From positions 99,849 to 163,848 of the forward strand of contig CAWEXO010000015.1 of the NCBI GenBank assembly GCA_963813025.1: a DNA stretch of 64,000 nt. Reading direction: 5' to 3'. The notes under the pieces were generated by a model. That model searched no databases. It was not told where the DNA came from and worked only from the letters and a program-made list of their open reading frames with translations. This document shows positions 18,083-57,153 of this stretch, in pieces. The DNA comes from an uncultured Verrucomicrobiae bacterium (GTDB taxonomy: Bacteria > Verrucomicrobiota > Verrucomicrobiia > Chthoniobacterales > JAFAMB01). The stretch's first letter is position 1; each line of letters begins with the position of its first letter. The translations under genes and the position numbers were made by a program.

Positions 18083-18256
18083 AGTGCCAGTGCCAGTGCT
18101 AGTGCTAGTGCCACTCAGTGTCGGCGCTGCTCAGAACGGGCAAGAGCACACAGATCGAAATACCTGGTTCTGTGACAAGCCCTTATGGATGGGTCCCGTA
18201 GGTCGATGGGCCCTATGGGTTCTATGGGCGCGGACACTAGCACTAGCACTGACACT
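18083..18256. repeat. Inward-facing hexamer arrays (AGTGCY)5 and (AGCACT/GACACT)4 enclosing degenerate 9-mer repeats
   Basis: 18083-18112 and 18233-18256 are reverse-complement arrays; ccctatggg-like units at 18180-18229. Confidence 0.85.
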
Positions 18257-20810: not shown

Positions 20811-21218
20811 AGTGCTAGTGCTAGTGCTAGTGGAACCGCGCCGGAAACTGCCTTCCCAGTACCGCCAACGTTGTCTACGCTGGCTGATGAGCTCGCAATT
20901 TTCACGGGAGTCAGTGGCGTTCACTGTTGGCCCGGCAATTCCTGAAGAGCGGCTTTAGCTGGGGCGAGAATTCAGAGAACGTCTCGCAAGACCCAAGCTC
21001 GGTAGGGTCAAGCTCCCGCTTGACCATTGGAGCGAAAGTCATCTCGCGATTCGGACGAGCAGGAGCTCATCCCTACCGCGCAGAAGTTGATCCCCAGCCA
21101 TCAGGAGCCCATCGCTCCTCGTGCTTGATCCCACTTCGAAAGCGGGTCAGATAATTTTTTTGCCGGCCGCCGCAGAGCAAGTTGAACGTTCCAGGTACAG
21201 CACACTGGCACTAGCACC
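20811..21218. repeat. Inward-facing AGTGCT arrays enclosing a GTAG-REP doublet (21001-21078)
   Basis: agtgctagtgctagtgctagtg ... cacactggcactagcacc; GGTAGGGTCAAGCTCCCGCTTGACC ... GGACGAGCAGGAGCTCATCCCTACC. Confidence 0.8.
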
Positions 21219-23791: not shown

Positions 23792-24484
23792 TCATTTGAG
23801 GATGGCAGCCAAGCGGGGATTGTAGGGTTGTTGGTGGCGAAGAACGCCGAAAACAATGTGGAGGAGTTTGCGCATGATCGCGCCACGGATGGCCAGGGAG
23901 TGTAGTTTGCGCGACTCAAGCTCTGCAGCCCATTGTCGGATGGGTTTGCACCAACGACGGGCCACGGCGGCAGGCAGATAGAGGGCTTTACGCAGGAAGG
24001 CGTCGCCGATTTTGCACAGCACGGTTTTGCCGTAGCGCGAGAAACCCGAGCGGCATTCGGCGGGAGTGAGTCCGGCATAAGCGGCCAGTTGGCGAGCCGA
24101 TTGGAACTCTTTACCGGCCAATTCGGCCAGCAACTTGGCGGCGGTAAGCTGGGCAATACCGGGAATGGAGCACAGCAGCTTGCTTTGGCGGCTTAAAGAC
24201 TCATCGGCGGCGATCAGCTCCAAGAAGACTGACTCGATGACCGCAACGCCTGCCTGGTGCAGGGCGGCGACCAACTGCTTGCCGTAGACGCCAGTGGCTT
24301 CCAAGGCGAAGTGGATTTGGCGGAGCGGCCAACCGCGGGCTTGGAGTTGGGCTAAAAATGCTCCGATGCCCGCCGCATCATTGCTGAACTTCCCCCGCCA
24401 GAGGCTGGTGCCGGTTTTGGAAAGCGCGCAAAAGTCAAAGGTTGCTTTTGCCAGGTCAATACCGATGCAGTAAGGTTTTTTCAT
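23792..24484 (-). pseudogene. IS110 recombinase with an in-frame internal deletion
   Basis: GIDLAK, LEATGVY, SIPGI and AAYAGL.P...SG are present; the KTDxxDA region and coiled coil are missing. Confidence 0.85.
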
Positions 24485-24537
24485 CAGACAGGAATTCGCG
24501 TTGAATTGGTTCTTTGTTTGATGAAGCGCTTGGGCGC

Positions 24538-24745
24538 GCACCTTTCCGACAGAGCCTTGTCCACACAGGCTCATGTTCCAACCCTGTTTGGAACGGCCTA
24601 AGATACGGTTCGGTCTTTTGCAAGGTGCGGCACGAGGAGGGTGGACTAATCTACCGGACAGGTTCTACCGACCTTTGGGCGAAGCAGTTTTCCACCCCCC
24701 TCGGCCAAGTTCTTCACCTCCAGAGTTCCGCCCTTGCGGGCGGCT
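24538..24745 (-). ncRNA. Predicted IS110 bridge RNA
   Basis: Two stem-closed internal loops whose guide segments match the flanking REP target and the element's own donor junction. Confidence 0.8.
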
Positions 24746-24779: not shown

Positions 24780-24876
24780 AGGGCGAGAATTTATTTGAGC
24801 CGTCTTGGGAGGTGGCAACCTCTCCGTCCGGCTCAAATAAATTCTCGCCCTACCGCCACCAGGGCTCGCCCTACCG
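24780..24876. repeat. GTAG-family REP doublet
   Basis: agggcgagaatttatttgagccg ... cggctcaaataaattctcgccctac; related copies at ~25452, 44142-44277 and 57249-57412. Confidence 0.9.
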
Positions 24877-24912
24877 AAACAGGGCCGATAAGGTTGCGAG
24901 TGCTTAGAGCCG

Positions 24913-25377
24913 TCACCACCAATCAGCAAATCGGGTCATCTCACCTTGGAATCGCCAGCGCGCTGGCTCGTCCGTCAAGCCCGCCCTAATCGGATTCATG
25001 AGTATATACCGGTACCTTGCTTCAGCGCTGTCGTGGGCGCGAATCCGATGATGGAATGACCCGGACTGCCATCTGCAGCCTGGCTGATCGAATCGTAGTG
25101 AGATCCGCGATTTCCAAATCTTGATCCAAAGATCCAGTCCGGCTTGGCCTGAGCCCGGCCAAGCAAAGAAATGCAGGTGATCAGGCATGATCATGTAGCG
25201 CCCGACGTGCCAGTCCGTTGCTTCTCCCCACGCTGCAACGAGCAATGTCTGTACCGTATCGTTAGCCAGCCATCTGATTCGCTTTCGGGTGCACACGGTG
25301 ACAAGCACCAAAGTGGGCTGTTCGTCGATAAAAAGAACACCTTTTGCCGGGTACTTCCGCTGTGGTCGGTAGTACAT
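24913..25377 (-). CDS. REP-associated tyrosine transposase (RAYT, Y1 HUH)
   Basis: VTVCT, YMIMPDHLHF, WQSGSFHHRIR, YILMNPIRAGL; flanked by REPs. Confidence 0.92.
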   Translation of the reverse strand: MYYRPQRKYPAKGVLFIDEQPTLVLVTVCTRKRIRWLANDTVQTLLVAAWGEATDWHVGRYMIMPDHLHFFAWPGSGQAGLDLWIKIWKSRISLRFDQPGCRWQSGSFHHRIRAHDSAEARYRYILMNPIRAGLTDEPARWRFQGEMTRFADWW

Positions 25378-25645
25378 AAAACAGAATTACTAGTTGTGTT
25401 TTAACCCGACAATTTAAAAATACTCTTAATGTTGAGCTCTGGCCCTGCGCCGGTAGGGCGAGAATTTATTCGAGCCGGACGAGAGGTTGCCACATCCCAA
25501 AGACGGCCTCGCAACATGGCCTCGCCCCTGCGCCGGTATTCTGAGACGATCTCTAGCGCTCGCGCGACCAATCGCTTGATGGCGTATAGATTTCCAAAGT
25601 CCGACACCCCTGGAAGCCTGTGCCACCTTCCAGTGATCAAGCTGC

Positions 25646-27924: not shown

Positions 27925-28887
27925 ATGCTATGCCGGGTTGCTGACGCGCTTTTCTGGTTGAGTCGCTACATTGAGCGCGCGGAGAACAACGCGCGCATGC
28001 TCGATGTCAACCTGCAACTCATGCTGGATGCACAGATCGACAATCGAAACACCCAGCAACATTGGGAGTCGATCATCTATTCGCTCGAAGATACCAAGGT
28101 TTTCCAGGAGCTCTATTCCGCGATCACAAATGAATCGGTGGTGGAGTACGTTGCTTTCGAACCCAAAAACTCCAACTCCATCCTTTCTTGCTTCTGCTGG
28201 GCCCGCGAAAACGCCCGCACGGTCCGAGAAGAGATCTCGGCCGAGATGTGGGAACAACTCAACCGCATCTACCTGGCCTTCCGCTCAGGGGAAGCACGCC
28301 GGCTCTTTGGTTCGAGCACGTACGAATTCTTTAAGTGGATCGTGGAAGGTTGCCAGCTTTTTCACGGAATCGCCGACGCCACGATGAGCCGGGACGAAGG
28401 CTGGGAGTTTTTACAGCTCGGCAAGTTCCTGGAACGGGCCGATCGGACTTCCCGCATTCTCGATATCAAATACCACATCCTGCTTCCCAAAGGCGAGCGA
28501 GTCGGCGGTAATGTCGACACGATCCAATGGATGGCTGTCCTCAAATCCTGCAGCGCTCTGGAGTCTTACCGGAAACATTACCAGGGTGAAGTGGCGCCTT
28601 GGAAAGTGGCTGAATTTCTGATCAAACATTCGACCTTTGCTCGATCGATTTTGTTTTGTGTCGATTCCATGGACGGGGCTTTGCATGACATCACTGGCGT
28701 CGATCGCCGAGAGTATCGCGAAGAGGCGGAGCGCTTGTCGGGCAAGCTGCTGGCGGATCTCTCTTTCATCACCATCGCGGAAATATTTGAGATGGGGTTG
28801 CATCAATATCTCGATCGGATGCAGTTGCGTCTGACCGAGGTTAGCGAAGCGGTTTATAGGGATTTCTGCCAGTGGTTGGACGAGTGA
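27925..28887 (+). CDS. Alpha-E domain protein
   Basis: MLCRVADALFWLSRYIERAEN, LERADRTSRILD. Confidence 0.92.
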   Translation: MLCRVADALFWLSRYIERAENNARMLDVNLQLMLDAQIDNRNTQQHWESIIYSLEDTKVFQELYSAITNESVVEYVAFEPKNSNSILSCFCWARENARTVREEISAEMWEQLNRIYLAFRSGEARRLFGSSTYEFFKWIVEGCQLFHGIADATMSRDEGWEFLQLGKFLERADRTSRILDIKYHILLPKGERVGGNVDTIQWMAVLKSCSALESYRKHYQGEVAPWKVAEFLIKHSTFARSILFCVDSMDGALHDITGVDRREYREEAERLSGKLLADLSFITIAEIFEMGLHQYLDRMQLRLTEVSEAVYRDFCQWLDE

Positions 28888-28895
28888 GTCTGCGG

Positions 28896-29516
28896 GGAGT
28901 TCAAGGAGTTCAAGGAGTTCAAGGAAGCCTCGCTCGCCGTGATATAAACAATTTTTTTTCTTGTTCTGTTATGTTGCACGTCTAAGATCCGGGGATGAAA
29001 AAAGCTTCATCTTTCCAAGACCTTATTGTTTGGCAGCACTCGCACAAACTGGTGCTCAAGACTTATGAGCTGACGAAATCTTTCCGCGCTCAGAACTGTT
29101 CTGTTTGACGGCGCAAATGCGCAGGGCCGCAATTTCTGTTCCAGCAAATATTGCTGAGGGTTTTCGGAAGCGTGGTGTACCAGATAAACTGCGGATACTC
29201 AATATTGCTCAGGGCTCGCTCGAAGAGCTCCGCTATTATTTTATCCTTGCCCAGGATCTCGGCTACGCCTTGACCGAGCTTCTCGACTCCAGCGCCGCCG
29301 ACGTGTCACGACTTCTTGTTGGGTACGCCAGCGGAATTGCGAAGGCGCGTTCGCGCAACGAGGAGGGAACTCCAACTCCTCGAACTCCTTGAACTTGCCG
29401 CGATTGCTCCCAGAGTTTCTCGACGGTCGAGACATCATCCGCGAGAGAGCAAGAGATAACCACAGCGAGGAGTGAACTCCTTGAACTCCTCCAACTCCTC
29501 GAACTCCTGCAACTCC
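28896..29516. repeat. Inward-facing 9-mer arrays (GGAGTTCAA)3 and (YYSAACTCC)n flanking a four-helix-bundle gene
   Basis: Left array 28896-28925; reverse-complement arrays 29367-29395 and 29473-29516. Confidence 0.88.
28995..29392 (+). pseudogene. Four helix bundle protein (23S rRNA IVP / Avd-like), single frameshift
   Basis: MKKASSFQDLIVWQHSHKLVLKTYELTKSF / ELFCLTAQMRRAAISVPANIAEGF...IAQGSLEELRY. Confidence 0.88.
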
Positions 29517-29522
29517 TCTCTC

Positions 29523-30719
29523 TCACCTCTCCAAAAACGGCCAGCGCGGAACGAAATGCCAACCGGTTGGCCGCCGGCGTCGGGATGTCTCCGCCTGCCG
29601 CCGATGACGCCGAGCAGGCTTCTTCGTCTCCGGCTTGACTTTAGCTAGTTTCTTCGTCACAGGCGTGCTCCAGACGAAAACATTGCCATCGTCGGCTCCC
29701 GCCGCGATCCATTTGCCATCCGGCGAAATGGCTACAGCCCAAACCGGTTTATCTCTGTCCAGAAGTTCCAGCCGGGTTTGCGGTGCCGGAAACTGGATCA
29801 GATTGACCCTGCCATCCTCGCCGCTGGTAGCGATCCAGTTTGAGCCGGGTGACCATGATACCCCGTGGGCGCCTCCCAAGCCGCTCTGGTGCGCCTGCAC
29901 CGCCATTACCGGCACGCCAGTGGCAGCGGAAAGAACTACGAGCCGCCCGTCCTGCCGCACACTAGCCAAGTATTTGCCATCGGGCGAATAGGCAACCCCG
30001 TTAACCTCGTCCTTTCCGTACCCGAATGGCGGGCGGTAGCTCGCCGGGACCTCCTGTTGGCGCCAGCGCTCAGTCGCGGAACCGAGATCGTAGACCGAGA
30101 CGCTGCTCCCCTCACCGCCGGTGCCAACGGCAAAAGTACTGTTGTCAGGAGCAAGATCCAAACTCAGCCCGCTGCCGTCGAGCTGAATCGTTGCCCGCGC
30201 GAAACCCGAGAGATCCCAGATCCTGGCGAAGCCGGACTGGTCAACGGATATCAAAGCATCGCCGCGCAAACTCCATTGCAAAGCCAAAATCCAGGAGCGT
30301 CCATCCAGCTTTTTGAAAAACTGAGTTGGCGTCCAGATCCAGATCGTGCCGTCCTGCCCGCCTGCCGCCAGCGACGCGGCATCGGGCGACCAGGCCAGCG
30401 CGGATATCTGGCCTTGATCGCTCCGCAGGACGTCTTCTTTCGTGAATTCCGGCGCACGATAAAGCCACACATTATCTCGTCCTGCCACCGCCAGAAGACG
30501 ACTGTCCGGGGACCAGGCGAGCCCATAGACACTTCCTTCCTGGTTAACGGACCAGATCGGCACGAGGGTGAAATCGGCGGCCGGCAAGAGCTCATCGTTG
30601 GCAGTCGAAGCACTCGTCACGGTCATAAGACCGAGCACGGTGCTGATCAGTAGCCCGCAAGAATTCCCCAAAAGGCGCAGGCTTCGATCTAGCGCAGCGC
30701 GGCATAGCTGTGGGTGCAT
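29523..30719 (-). CDS. Secreted WD40-repeat protein
   Basis: Repeated LAWSPD/VAYSPDG...GGQDGT.IW units; hydrophobic N-terminus; start uncertain. Confidence 0.85.
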   Translation of the reverse strand: MHPQLCRAALDRSLRLLGNSCGLLISTVLGLMTVTSASTANDELLPAADFTLVPIWSVNQEGSVYGLAWSPDSRLLAVAGRDNVWLYRAPEFTKEDVLRSDQGQISALAWSPDAASLAAGGQDGTIWIWTPTQFFKKLDGRSWILALQWSLRGDALISVDQSGFARIWDLSGFARATIQLDGSGLSLDLAPDNSTFAVGTGGEGSSVSVYDLGSATERWRQQEVPASYRPPFGYGKDEVNGVAYSPDGKYLASVRQDGRLVVLSAATGVPVMAVQAHQSGLGGAHGVSWSPGSNWIATSGEDGRVNLIQFPAPQTRLELLDRDKPVWAVAISPDGKWIAAGADDGNVFVWSTPVTKKLAKVKPETKKPARRHRRQAETSRRRRPTGWHFVPRWPFLER

Positions 30720-38640: not shown

Positions 38641-38691
38641 AGTAATCGGTAATCGGTAATCGGTCATTGATCATCGTTCATCGGTCATCGG
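38641..38691 (+). repeat. Heptamer tandem array (GTAATCG/GTCATCG)
   Basis: agtaatcggtaatcggtaatcggtcattgatcatcgttcatcggtcatcgg. Confidence 0.8.
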
Positions 38692-38739: not shown

Positions 38740-40560
38740 TTGATGACGACTCGCGGGGCGGGACGATGCCGAGTAACCTCTCGCCTTTGGCGATGGTGGA
38801 TCTGGGCATTTTATGTCTCAGGCCTCGTCGCTGCTAGCGTCACCGCGGCACCCAGTCCGGCCGCTTCGAGCTCGCCCAAGAATGCGAAGACTGAGCTCCG
38901 CTACCTTAGCGCGGACCAATTGTTGGACGCTGACACTCATCCGGGTACCCCGGACCAGGCGCTATCCAAACTGGGGGAAGCGAAAGCGGAAGCCGAAGCG
39001 GATTATATCCGGGGAACGATCCTTGAGGATCAAGGAGACGACGGGGGTTCGCTAGATGCGTACACCAAGTGCTTGCAGCTGGACCCGGGCGGGAATCCCG
39101 CTCTGGCGCTGCGAGTCGCTGACGAATATGCCAAGCGCGACGACGTCGCCAGCGGGATTTCCATCCTCAAGGATCTGGCCAAGGCCAGACCGCAGGAGCC
39201 GGCCGCTTTTCTCAACCTGGCCTACTTCTATCTGCATCAACTCAATAAGCCCGACCTGGCGATTCGCTACGCCGAACAGGCGGTCAAAGCGGCCCCGGAG
39301 AATTTCGGTGGGTACCAGACTCTTTTTGAAATCTACGAAATGCAGAAACGCAAGCCGGAGGCCGAACAGATCTTGCAGCAGGCCAATGAGGTCGCGACCA
39401 AGGATCCAAACTATTGGCTGAATCTGGCTGGCCTTTTCGCTAAGCTCTACGGATCCAGGGCGGGTGAGTTCCCAGCGAACCGCGCGAGCGCGGTCGAAAC
39501 ACCGCTCCGAAAAGCAGTTGTACTAGCGGGTAATGACGGCAGCATTTACTCGCGGGCGGCGGATACCTTTGTCCAGATCAACGAATTCGCCGAGGCAATC
39601 CCCCTCTATCTCAAGTCCCTGGATCTCAATAAGGCGGGCGCCGACGATCGGTATAAGCTAGCGCAAAGCTTTCTGAAAGCTGGACGGCGCGACGACGCGA
39701 TCCGGACCCTTGAAGAAACGCTGAAAGTCAGCCCGCTCCGATTTGAGGTTTACGAATTTCTGGCCCGGCTTTACGAGGACAGCGGAAACGCTGAGCGCGC
39801 TTTATCGAACTATCAGCAAGCGCTGCTGCTGGCTCCGAATCAGCCAGAGAACTATTTGCATACCGCAGAGGCGCAGCTGCAGCTCAAAAGGTACGACGAC
39901 GCGATTCGGACCTTGGAGGACGCTCGGCGGCGTTTCCCGATCCCGCAGATCACCTACAGCCTGGCGATTGCGCTGAGTTCCGCCAAGCGGCACAACGAGG
40001 CGCTGCCGATCTATGAATCGGCTTTGCAGGAAGCGAAGTCTAACGAGGAAGACTTGCTGGACGGCAGCTTTTACTTCAACTACGCGGTCTCTGCGGAACA
40101 GGCCGGGTTCATCGATAAGGCGGCTGGGTTGTTGAAAGAATCAATCGAACAGGACCCAAGCAAGGCCGCGCAGGCGTACAATTATCTCGGATTTATGTGG
40201 GTTGACCGAAACATGAATCTCGACGAGGCCGGCTCGATGATCCGGCGAGCCCTTGAGTTGGAGCCGGATAACGGTGCCTTTCTCGACAGCCTCGGCTGGT
40301 TCTACTATCGCAAAGCGGAGTTCGGCAAGGCGCTTACCGAGTTGCTGCACGCCGTCGCGGTATTGAAGCCGGCCGACCCCGTTGTTTTTGAACACCTGGG
40401 AGATACTTACCGCGCCTTGGGTAATTCCACGCAGGCGCTCATCTATTGGCAGAAGGCGGCTAAACTCGATCCGCACAATCAGGAATTACTGACCAAGATT
40501 GACCAATCGAAGGCGCGGCTGACCGCCATGCCGGCGCCTTCGCCGACGCCGAACAAGTGA
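38740..40560 (+). CDS. Secreted tetratricopeptide repeat protein
   Basis: Multiple TPRs; YNYLGFMW...RALELEPDNGAFLDSLGW C-terminal motif. Confidence 0.88.
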   Translation: MMTTRGAGRCRVTSRLWRWWIWAFYVSGLVAASVTAAPSPAASSSPKNAKTELRYLSADQLLDADTHPGTPDQALSKLGEAKAEAEADYIRGTILEDQGDDGGSLDAYTKCLQLDPGGNPALALRVADEYAKRDDVASGISILKDLAKARPQEPAAFLNLAYFYLHQLNKPDLAIRYAEQAVKAAPENFGGYQTLFEIYEMQKRKPEAEQILQQANEVATKDPNYWLNLAGLFAKLYGSRAGEFPANRASAVETPLRKAVVLAGNDGSIYSRAADTFVQINEFAEAIPLYLKSLDLNKAGADDRYKLAQSFLKAGRRDDAIRTLEETLKVSPLRFEVYEFLARLYEDSGNAERALSNYQQALLLAPNQPENYLHTAEAQLQLKRYDDAIRTLEDARRRFPIPQITYSLAIALSSAKRHNEALPIYESALQEAKSNEEDLLDGSFYFNYAVSAEQAGFIDKAAGLLKESIEQDPSKAAQAYNYLGFMWVDRNMNLDEAGSMIRRALELEPDNGAFLDSLGWFYYRKAEFGKALTELLHAVAVLKPADPVVFEHLGDTYRALGNSTQALIYWQKAAKLDPHNQELLTKIDQSKARLTAMPAPSPTPNK

Positions 40561-40976
40561 GTTGCGGGTCCCGGGTCCCGAGTAGCGAGTCCCGGGTCCC
40601 GAGCAAAGCCCCAAGTGGCGAATCCTCGCGTGGCGAGGCGAAGATCCTTGATCCCGCGCTCGAAACCTTCGGCAAAATTGGACAAAACGGAGATCGATGC
40701 TCACCTCATCTGGCGGACAGCATCCACATCCGTTGCAATCCGAGTCTTGAGGACAAGTGTCCCAAACAGCCTCGACTTTTTGAAGGCCTCGAAATCTGAG
40801 AACCCGTTAATAGTTGCCATATTCGCCATGTTTGCTGTTTCGGTATGATAACGCAATATCACTGAGTTACTATATTGCGCGCATTTGGTGGCTGACGATC
40901 GTTACGCGCTACTCGGGACGCGCTACTCGGGACGCGCTACTCGGGACGCGCTACTCGGGACGCGCTACCCGCAACT
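40560..40976. repeat. Inward-facing 7/14-mer arrays with terminal AGTTGCGGGT flanking a four-helix-bundle remnant
   Basis: Left agttgcgggtcccgggtcccgagtagcgagtcccg; right (acgcgctactcggg)4 acgcgctacccgcaact. Confidence 0.88.
40640..40820 (-). pseudogene. Four helix bundle protein remnant
   Basis: MATINGFSDFEAFKKSRLF...RQMR*ASISVLSNFAEGFERG; internal stop, truncated. Confidence 0.8.
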
Positions 40977-49308: not shown

Positions 49309-49543
49309 GGAGTTCAGGGGAGTTCAAGGGGTTCGAGGGGTTGGCGCGCCGGACGAGCTGAAAAGAGAATACGAGCGTGCTCTCTTTGCACTGATGCATG
49401 GGTAAAACCGGACTGCGTATCGCAAGGCCCTCCGATCACGGCTTCCCGGGCTGTTAAGCCCCGAGATGCACGTTTCCGTAGCGCCATTTTGGGTTCGCAA
49501 CTTCCCTGAACTTCCTCGAACTTCCTCGAACTCCTTAAACCCA
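49309..49543. repeat. Gene-less inward-facing GGAGTTCAR / YGAACTTCC arrays
   Basis: 49309-49342 and 49498-49543; same unit family as 28896-29516. Confidence 0.8.
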
Positions 49544-57013: not shown

Positions 57014-57153
57014 GGAACAGCTTGTAGCACCCGACGAGCGAATCGAAAACCCGAATCCCGGGCGACCAAGTCCCGAGTGGCGAGTCCCGAGTCCCGCGGT
57101 AGAAACGCCTCGTGCCGGTCGGGACGGTACTTAGTTAGCGCGGACAGTCTCGG

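Follow-up and report, generated by a model that had tools for sequence, protein, structure and literature searches.

Proteins of the PF05635/TIGR02436 family form a large group with solved structures, to which, to our knowledge, no function has been assigned. Avd, which accompanies the reverse transcriptase (RT) of DGRs, is a non-catalytic accessory. The closest described element that carries a gene of the family is Coxiella burnetii's 23S rRNA intervening sequence (IVS): according to the accessible parts of its description, it holds a TIGR02436/PF05635-family gene, a 28-bp stem and the heptamers GACAGAT/GACAGAA, and is excised by RNase III, and the same parts call it unclear how ORF-bearing intervening sequences arose and how they move (PMC4990558). 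A similar build is known from REPtrons and TIRtrons, in which a small gene lies between inverted repeats, and the related RAYT-REPIN systems comprise many gene-less extragenic inverted doublets with variable spacers and repeat families that are specific to protein lineages, as far as the excerpts of two sources describe them (10.1101/2021.07.10.451892; PMC3733652). One link between RAYTs and competence comes from Bertels et al. (PMC5581495), who, in the section available and citing Sinha 2009, report that the E. coli RAYT is induced under competence.

We analyzed a window of 64,000 nucleotides from the genome of an uncultured Verrucomicrobiae bacterium (G000, 4.4 Mb) together with a same-genus genome (G001, 4.2 Mb, of which 2.0 Mb was read) and further relatives. 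The locus under study is a cassette of ∼620 bp at 28896-29518, in which a frameshifted four-helix-bundle gene lies between inward-facing GGAGTTCAA arrays. Upstream, an alpha-E gene (PF04168; 27925..28887, plus strand), whose G001 protein is 95% identical, is followed 9 bp past its stop codon by the left arm, 3.3 copies of (GGAGTTCAA) on the plus strand (28896..28925). The gene itself (28995..29392, plus strand) has its ATG at 28995, its stop at 29392 and one frameshift near 29081-29084, and is preceded by a palindromic AAC-N13-GTT box (28943..28969; 18.9 bits, block-shuffle p 0.002) that covers a likely extended -10 promoter. An inner right array on the minus strand (29370..29395), the reverse complement of the GGAGTTCAA word, overlaps the stop codon of the gene, and the right arm, five reverse-complement 9-mers (29474..29518, minus strand), ends 5 bp before the stop of a WD40 beta-propeller gene (29523..30719, minus strand) that is syntenic in G001. 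Over 30 nt, the outer arms show 90% complementarity, and the cassette folds as a single hairpin (z -4.85 versus 20 shuffles).

The earlier note on this DNA had described a four-helix-bundle gene with one frameshift, repeat arrays and their reverse complements on its two sides, and a unit filling the gap between two convergent stop codons, and each of these points agrees with our observations (alpha-E stop at 28887, WD40 stop at 29523). The imperfect inner inverted segment that it placed just inside the arrays exists (28928..28943 on the plus strand, partner at 29456-29470) but is weak, with about 7 contiguous letters. The location between the alpha-E and WD40 genes rules out an insertion into 23S rRNA. 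The frameshift may be an assembly slip or genuine decay of the gene; relative to G001, G000 shows isolated losses of single bases at about 0.05 per kb, and the reads of three runs gave low cover with no listed joint across the cassette, one DNA run containing a fraction of 0.24 of the words. The recA gene is also frameshifted in the G000 assembly (G000:C11:679292-679909), probably by an assembly slip.

The downstream piece of the cassette gene matches PF05635 (E 1.6e-21; 76.9 bits, cut-off 33.8) and TIGR02436 (78.1 bits, cut-off 24), and against the Avd profile NF033474 the cassette protein scores 31.7 and 17.1 bits (cut-off 80). An intact paralogue of the same clade (G000:C13:606949) was modelled as four helices with a pLDDT of 92.4 (2GSC, TM 0.84). 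Its fold matches are Xcc0516, BT_0352 and, more weakly, Avd (PDB 4DWL), which has the same four-helix fold (TM 0.74, 13% identity); no nuclease or recombinase fold appeared among the structure matches at E <= 0.001. Unlike the Avd/DGR arrangement, the protein falls below the NF033474 cut-off, and neither a DGR-type RT nor a template repeat lies beside the cassette.

The comparison with the described elements places the cassette close to intervening sequences and REPINs and makes it a member of neither. With the Coxiella IVS, as portrayed in the available text, it shares the protein family, a stem of inverted repeats that has the gene in its loop and variable-number tandem heptamers before the ATG, and the GACAGAT/GACAGAA heptamers resemble the CAGAAGA/CAGGAGT words of this cassette's clade (PMC4990558). 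It differs from that IVS, so far as the same text shows, in lying between protein genes, in occurring as many copies and clades per genome, and in having its own box and gene-less derivatives. The likeness to REPtrons and TIRtrons is limited by the cargo, which is TIGR02436 and not the HUH tyrosine transposase given in the excerpts, the RAYT-like genes being located elsewhere. Like REPINs, the 64 array elements counted in G000 are extragenic and inverted, have variable spacers and are duplicated as units (paralogues 63-81%), whereas their arms are tandem arrays of 6-10-mers and not the short palindromes with a GTAG tag of the REPIN passages at hand. The 28896 arms in particular are tandem 9-mers without a tetranucleotide tag, and some other array elements enclose GTAG-tagged doublets. 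A further difference is that the cassette gene itself moves from site to site, whereas RAYTs of groups 2 and 3 are described as staying in place. Finally, as in MITEs, the units are short and non-autonomous, have inverted ends and are copied with their interiors, but in contrast to IS-derived MITEs no target-site duplication was seen, the number of repeat units at the ends varies and no parent transposase with the same ends was found. The same build is thus already in print, in the consulted part of PMC4990558, for one ribosomal-RNA intervening sequence; in the literature outside subscription journals and supplements we found no description of an ORF cassette of this type outside rRNA. What is new is the promoter box, which ties the cassette gene to comEC, comM and RAYT-like genes.

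Our preferred reading, to which we assign a probability of about 0.5, is that of a non-autonomous cassette, expressed during competence and moved as a single-stranded hairpin by a trans-acting enzyme, most plausibly a RAYT, with the four-helix-bundle protein acting as adaptor and array pairs serving as landing pads.

The window contains further array sites, three of which had been listed earlier as recurrences of the same design. The architecture with another repeat unit at 40560-40976 is a second cassette, with a heptamer array at one end (40559..40603, plus strand) and a 14-mer (double heptamer) array at the other (40904..40976, minus strand). Between them lies an internally deleted minus-strand gene (40653..40829), which belongs to another protein clade than the 28995 gene, and an AAC-N13-GTT box (40846..40872; 13.7 bits, p 0.004). 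This cassette is a copy of an intact one at G000:C8:48731 (leader 80% over 292 bp, trailer 93% over 82 bp). The two gene-less versions are likewise real inverted array pairs. One (49309..49543) belongs to the GGA(A)GTTCA family, and G001 has other arrays there; the second (18083..18256), an AGTGCC/CACTAG pair with a nested inner array at 18206-18229, lies between dprA and topA. The interiors of both pairs have no match elsewhere in G000. Partnerless arrays (by TRF) of the same word families are located at 20811-20832, 38645-38691 and 57069-57096 of the window.

Throughout the 4.4 Mb of G000, TRF detected 951 merged arrays, which form 107 inverted and 28 direct pairs within 1.5 kb, and 69 inverted versus 5 direct pairs within 300 bp. 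In 7 word families, the words of which were picked from the data, 54 short pairs share one polarity and 0 have the opposite one. The layout of array pairs is beyond chance. It is also associated with the four-helix-bundle genes: a shared-word array test was passed by 8 of 12 PF05635 loci in G000 versus 50 of 4447 crudely predicted ORFs, by 21 of 25 further loci within the bacterial family, and by 65 of 80 GTDB loci of the same protein clade from about ten phyla (direct orientation, 16; shifted windows, 6/142). The spread beyond the bacterial family is based on these 80 loci of one protein clade.

The earlier note had proposed to compare the repeat unit with the protein clade. The more alike two proteins are, the more alike are their arrays, with array similarity going from 0.014 to 0.18 (Mantel r 0.245, p 0.0002; 34 loci, five genomes); it is 0.028 within genomes versus 0.031 between genomes. 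The repeat word therefore tracks the protein clade and not the host, the link being moderate. CAGGAGT/CAGAATT-type words occur in nearly all of the distant loci, and a tree of 54 of the 114 rows (all 34 bacterial-family rows plus every fourth GTDB row) groups like words together, with 16 of 51 branches well supported. Read by eye, nine G000 array families have a cognate gene, intact or remnant. The description of the arrays as telomere-like stands as a resemblance; a telomerase-type activity and a DGR-type RT to go with it were not found.

Gene-less derivatives were observed directly. Protein-like interiors are present in 5 of 59 scored array pairs, and plain deletion of the gene was rejected as the source of the gene-less pairs; gene-less units repeat together with their interiors (63-81% identity in 10 paralogue alignments), and many interiors are unique. 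Arrays also enclose other genes. A VapBC-like toxin-antitoxin pair (by eye) lies within two nested array pairs in G001 (L376, G001:C5:160001-180000), with a gene-less pair in G000, and a decayed RAYT gene is bracketed by heptamer arrays at G000:C11:60203-61062. Remnants of GxxExxY nuclease genes at G000:C13:72738 and C13:46436 have their own short CACAAAG/CTTTGTG-type words and lack the box.

The comparison with G001 revealed extensive turnover. Both flanks were found in G001 (about 85% identical) for 28 of the 64 G000 array elements. Nearly all of these orthologous sites possess a hairpin element in G001, often a REP doublet, a nested set or one with a different word, so that REP doublets and cassettes substitute for one another at the same sites. 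Ten sites could be compared for the gene, and at 8 of them only one of the two genomes has it (five G000-only, three G001-only); five G000 loci and one G001 locus were left out of this comparison. Two of the three G001-only sites are array-free empty alleles in G000 of intact G001 cassettes. Of the two shared sites, one has remnants on opposite strands (by eye) and the other lies beside a ∼1 kb inversion. At the 28896 site of G001, the gene is replaced by a 48-bp palindrome with 22-bp arms that includes flank letters, and a second cassette site in G001 has a similar fold-back; both are perfect palindromes. A repeated REP family was rejected as the source of the first, as its core occurs at a single site in the 2.0 Mb read, which points to a local fold-back. 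One protein clade occupies three different loci in G000 and G001, with leader and trailer shared. Inspection by eye of the 28 orthologous sites, of 2 alleles that are cleanly empty and of 10 paralogue alignments revealed neither a target-site duplication nor a fixed junction.

The gene is thus not kept in place in a close relative. The earlier suggestion of a mobile or recombinogenic cassette with no transposase inside fits the gain and loss at 8 of 10 sites, the flipped remnant, the ∼1 kb inversion and a cassette in which no recognisable transposase is encoded, and we consider it very probable that the cassette is a mobile unit. Comparable footprints were noticed in other genomes. In genus g8 (L035, L037, L040, L041), an inverted duplicate of the final ∼30 bp of the alpha-E gene lies just after its stop, and a second perfect palindrome comes next; these fold-back footprints resemble those in G001. 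Four other genomes (L016, L036, L038, L042) have other, partly nested and gene-less inverted arrays after the same stop.

The positions of the elements bear on an alternative explanation, an RNA element of the intervening-sequence type, in which an RNase III-cut stem makes the insertion harmless or regulatory and spread is passive, by horizontal transfer and array recombination. The Coxiella 23S IVS of the same build, as far as the accessible text goes (PMC4990558), would be a precedent; roughly half of the elements begin no more than about 10 bp from a flanking stop codon, and the sense-strand arm duplex is the more stable one at 59 of 96 loci (p 0.018). This strand effect is small, however, and confounded by purine-rich 5' arms, and 35 of the 64 elements lie between convergent or divergent genes. 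The alternative also leaves unexplained the new array pairs at new sites, the fold-back palindromes, the fixed polarity and the promoter inside the hairpin, and we regard it as improbable.

The in-hairpin promoter is part of a shared regulatory signature, missed in the earlier note, that the cassette has in common with comEC, comM and RAYT genes. The AT-rich palindrome AAC-N13-GTT lies over the -10 region in 14 of 27 four-helix-bundle gene leaders of four relatives; other spacers gave 0-2/27, and the regions downstream of the genes 1/27. A matrix built from those 14 sites only identified both copies in the window and, at a score of at least 11 bits, the box in 19 of 25 further four-helix-bundle genes of the family, all passing block shuffles, the remaining 6/25 being without box. 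As background, scores of 11 bits or more occur at 72 of 4460 ORFs; among 1302 AT-rich leaders, 39 reach 13.5 bits or more. AT-richness as the cause of the box is ruled out by the spacer scan, the block shuffles and the AT-matched background.

Genome-wide matches of the box in G000 include comEC, comM, recQ, an ERCC4 nuclease gene and RAYT-like genes. At the threshold of at least 11 bits, the box was found in the bacterial family at comEC (29/30), comM (24/25 rows, two of which are one split gene and one a second copy) and RAYT-like genes (27/28 rows). As the comEC, comM and RAYT seeds were picked from the G000 matches and each positive set includes G000 rows, only the rows of the relatives are independent of that choice, and these are kin and not independent of each other. 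In the window, the box lies at the start of a RAYT-like gene (25376..25402; 17.1 bits, p 0.006); among RAYT-like G000 genes matched from their start, whose seeds came from the box match list, it is located 23-36 bp upstream in 8 of 9. The box is lineage-limited: of the 80 distant loci, 6 score 11 bits or more, four of them in Verrucomicrobiota, and most others have arrays up to the ATG. The recQ box and that of the short ERCC4/XPF nuclease gene are located at G000:C11:811990 and C9:181771, respectively. Three further boxed genes, G000:C5:311947, C11:235394 and C1:68755 (L174, L178 and L181; 365, 333 and 255 aa; boxes of 28.4, 23.8 and 21.5 bits), gave no Pfam or NCBIfam match and are candidate unknown members of a competence-type regulon.

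The box is present at comEC or comM in G004, G014 and G030, three genomes in which PF05635 was not found, which indicates that the factor reading it belongs to the host. Two regulators were rejected for this role. A LexA/SOS (RecA/LexA) regulon does not fit, as the box was found upstream of recA at 0 of 30 loci of the bacterial family (at least 11 bits). A WYL regulator is represented in G000 by a single gene without an upstream box and was not found in 12 of 37 family genomes, including three that are more than 90% complete and box-bearing. The dprA gene of G000 lacks the box, and a search for ComEA (PF12836, E 1e-8) found none in G000 and matched 9 of 37 family genomes, mostly in ∼800-residue proteins; a working uptake system is therefore putative. 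Given the box in common with REP transposases and genes for DNA uptake, the uptake of DNA by the cell is the likely occasion both for expression of the cassette and for its spread, and in this bacterial family expression of the cassette is probably linked to competence. No description of a competence-type regulon in this Verrucomicrobiota family was found in the literature outside subscription journals and supplements.

That conserved host genes, comEC and comM, share the box could also mean that the host has domesticated the protein as a helper in competence or DNA repair and that the arrays are independent slippage or REPIN-like repeats gathering at accessory genes. Most array pairs are indeed gene-less, with protein-like interiors in the 5 of 59 noted above. 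A domesticated gene would be expected neither to move as this one does (8/10 sites differ) nor to occur in up to 13 divergent and often broken PF05635 copies per genome, and every clade retains its own word; we hold this explanation to be very unlikely.

Under the preferred reading of a cassette moved in trans, an enzyme has to be sought outside it. Candidate HUH enzymes do co-occur, so that all four checks suggested in the earlier note (array enrichment, empty alleles, repeat unit against protein clade, a co-occurring enzyme) favour its interpretation. In the window, a RAYT-like HUH transposase gene (24913..25377, minus strand; NF047646 67.9 bits, cut-off 80), flanked by its own REP-like arms, is a candidate enzyme. 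RAYT-like genes were found in 47 of 48 other genomes with this cassette clade, taken from the 80 loci; for comparison, 2 of 14 unmatched controls have them. Within the bacterial family they were found in 33 of 37 genomes, and their size-corrected counts correlate with those of PF05635 (r 0.36, p 0.03), the genomes being kin and not independent. No RAYT match was obtained in G002, G022 and G036 (82%, 91% and 65% complete), which possess PF05635. The arrays are without the REP hairpin and terminal GTAG reported for RAYT substrates, and different arms, of their own, flank the RAYT-like genes of this genome. That a RAYT is the catalyst of cassette movement is a tentative proposal, to which we give somewhat less than even odds.

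Other partners were considered and rejected. Three RT matches in G000, likely of the group II intron type as judged by eye, are not linked to cassettes, which speaks against a DGR or retron partner, and the GxxExxY nuclease (PF13366) is represented by three fragments only, without box. Several observations concern the RAYT-like genes themselves. In two genomes, comM is immediately followed, on its own strand, by such a gene (G007:C2:4339300-4339698 and G023:C559:1142-1537). An IS110-family transposase piece adjoins the RAYT-like gene of the window (23792-24574, minus strand). Contigs of run X1 skip this gene between its arms (24859-25534); their short side is 22-24 letters and may come from other REP copies.

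The dissimilarity between the arrays and RAYT substrates leaves room for a further possibility, that the four-helix-bundle protein itself mobilises the cassette or is the specificity subunit of an array-building host polymerase or nuclease, the RAYT sharing the box because it exploits the competence state. The nine array families with a cognate intact or remnant gene and a word that follows the protein clade across about ten phyla would agree with such a role, as would five polar residues, Q41, S48, N52, E55 and E78, that are invariant or nearly so. Its fold argues the other way, being a plain four-helix bundle like Xcc0516, BT_0352 and Avd, of which Avd is non-catalytic, with no nuclease or recombinase among the matches, and arrays also bracket other cargo, namely the RAYT remnant and the VapBC-like pair. 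We consider an enzymatic role of the protein doubtful.

For the cassette moved in trans, which we prefer, we infer the following course of regulation, binding and catalysis. A host regulator of the competence programme would bind the AAC-N13-GTT box. Single-stranded DNA present during uptake would allow the two arms to pair and leave the gene looped out. The pentameric protein might bind its own repeat word and act as an adaptor or chaperone, as Avd does for the DGR reverse transcriptase, and the trans-acting mover would most plausibly be the co-regulated RAYT-type HUH transposase. Resident array pairs could serve as landing pads, at which interiors would be swapped or nested, and aborted events would give rise to the fold-back palindromes.

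In a wider and more speculative form, which we think rather unlikely as a whole, four-helix-bundle cassettes would be widespread mobile elements riding natural transformation. A competence regulator would co-activate the gene and the RAYT, and each protein would steer hairpin DNA to arrays by its own word; rRNA intervening sequences would then be stranded members, Avd a domesticated one, and heptamer-type arrays the footprints.

For the PF05635/TIGR02436 family, the main addition from this locus is the regulatory link, which provides a testable condition and a partner. The shared box supplies a condition (competence), candidate partners (RAYT, ComM and ComEC) and a substrate (the cognate repeat hairpin), so that the question of function in this orphan family becomes directly testable. 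The finding would also extend the single reported RAYT-competence link, known from E. coli, to another phylum, and it suggests that this Verrucomicrobiota family, probably one of soil, has a competence-type regulon.
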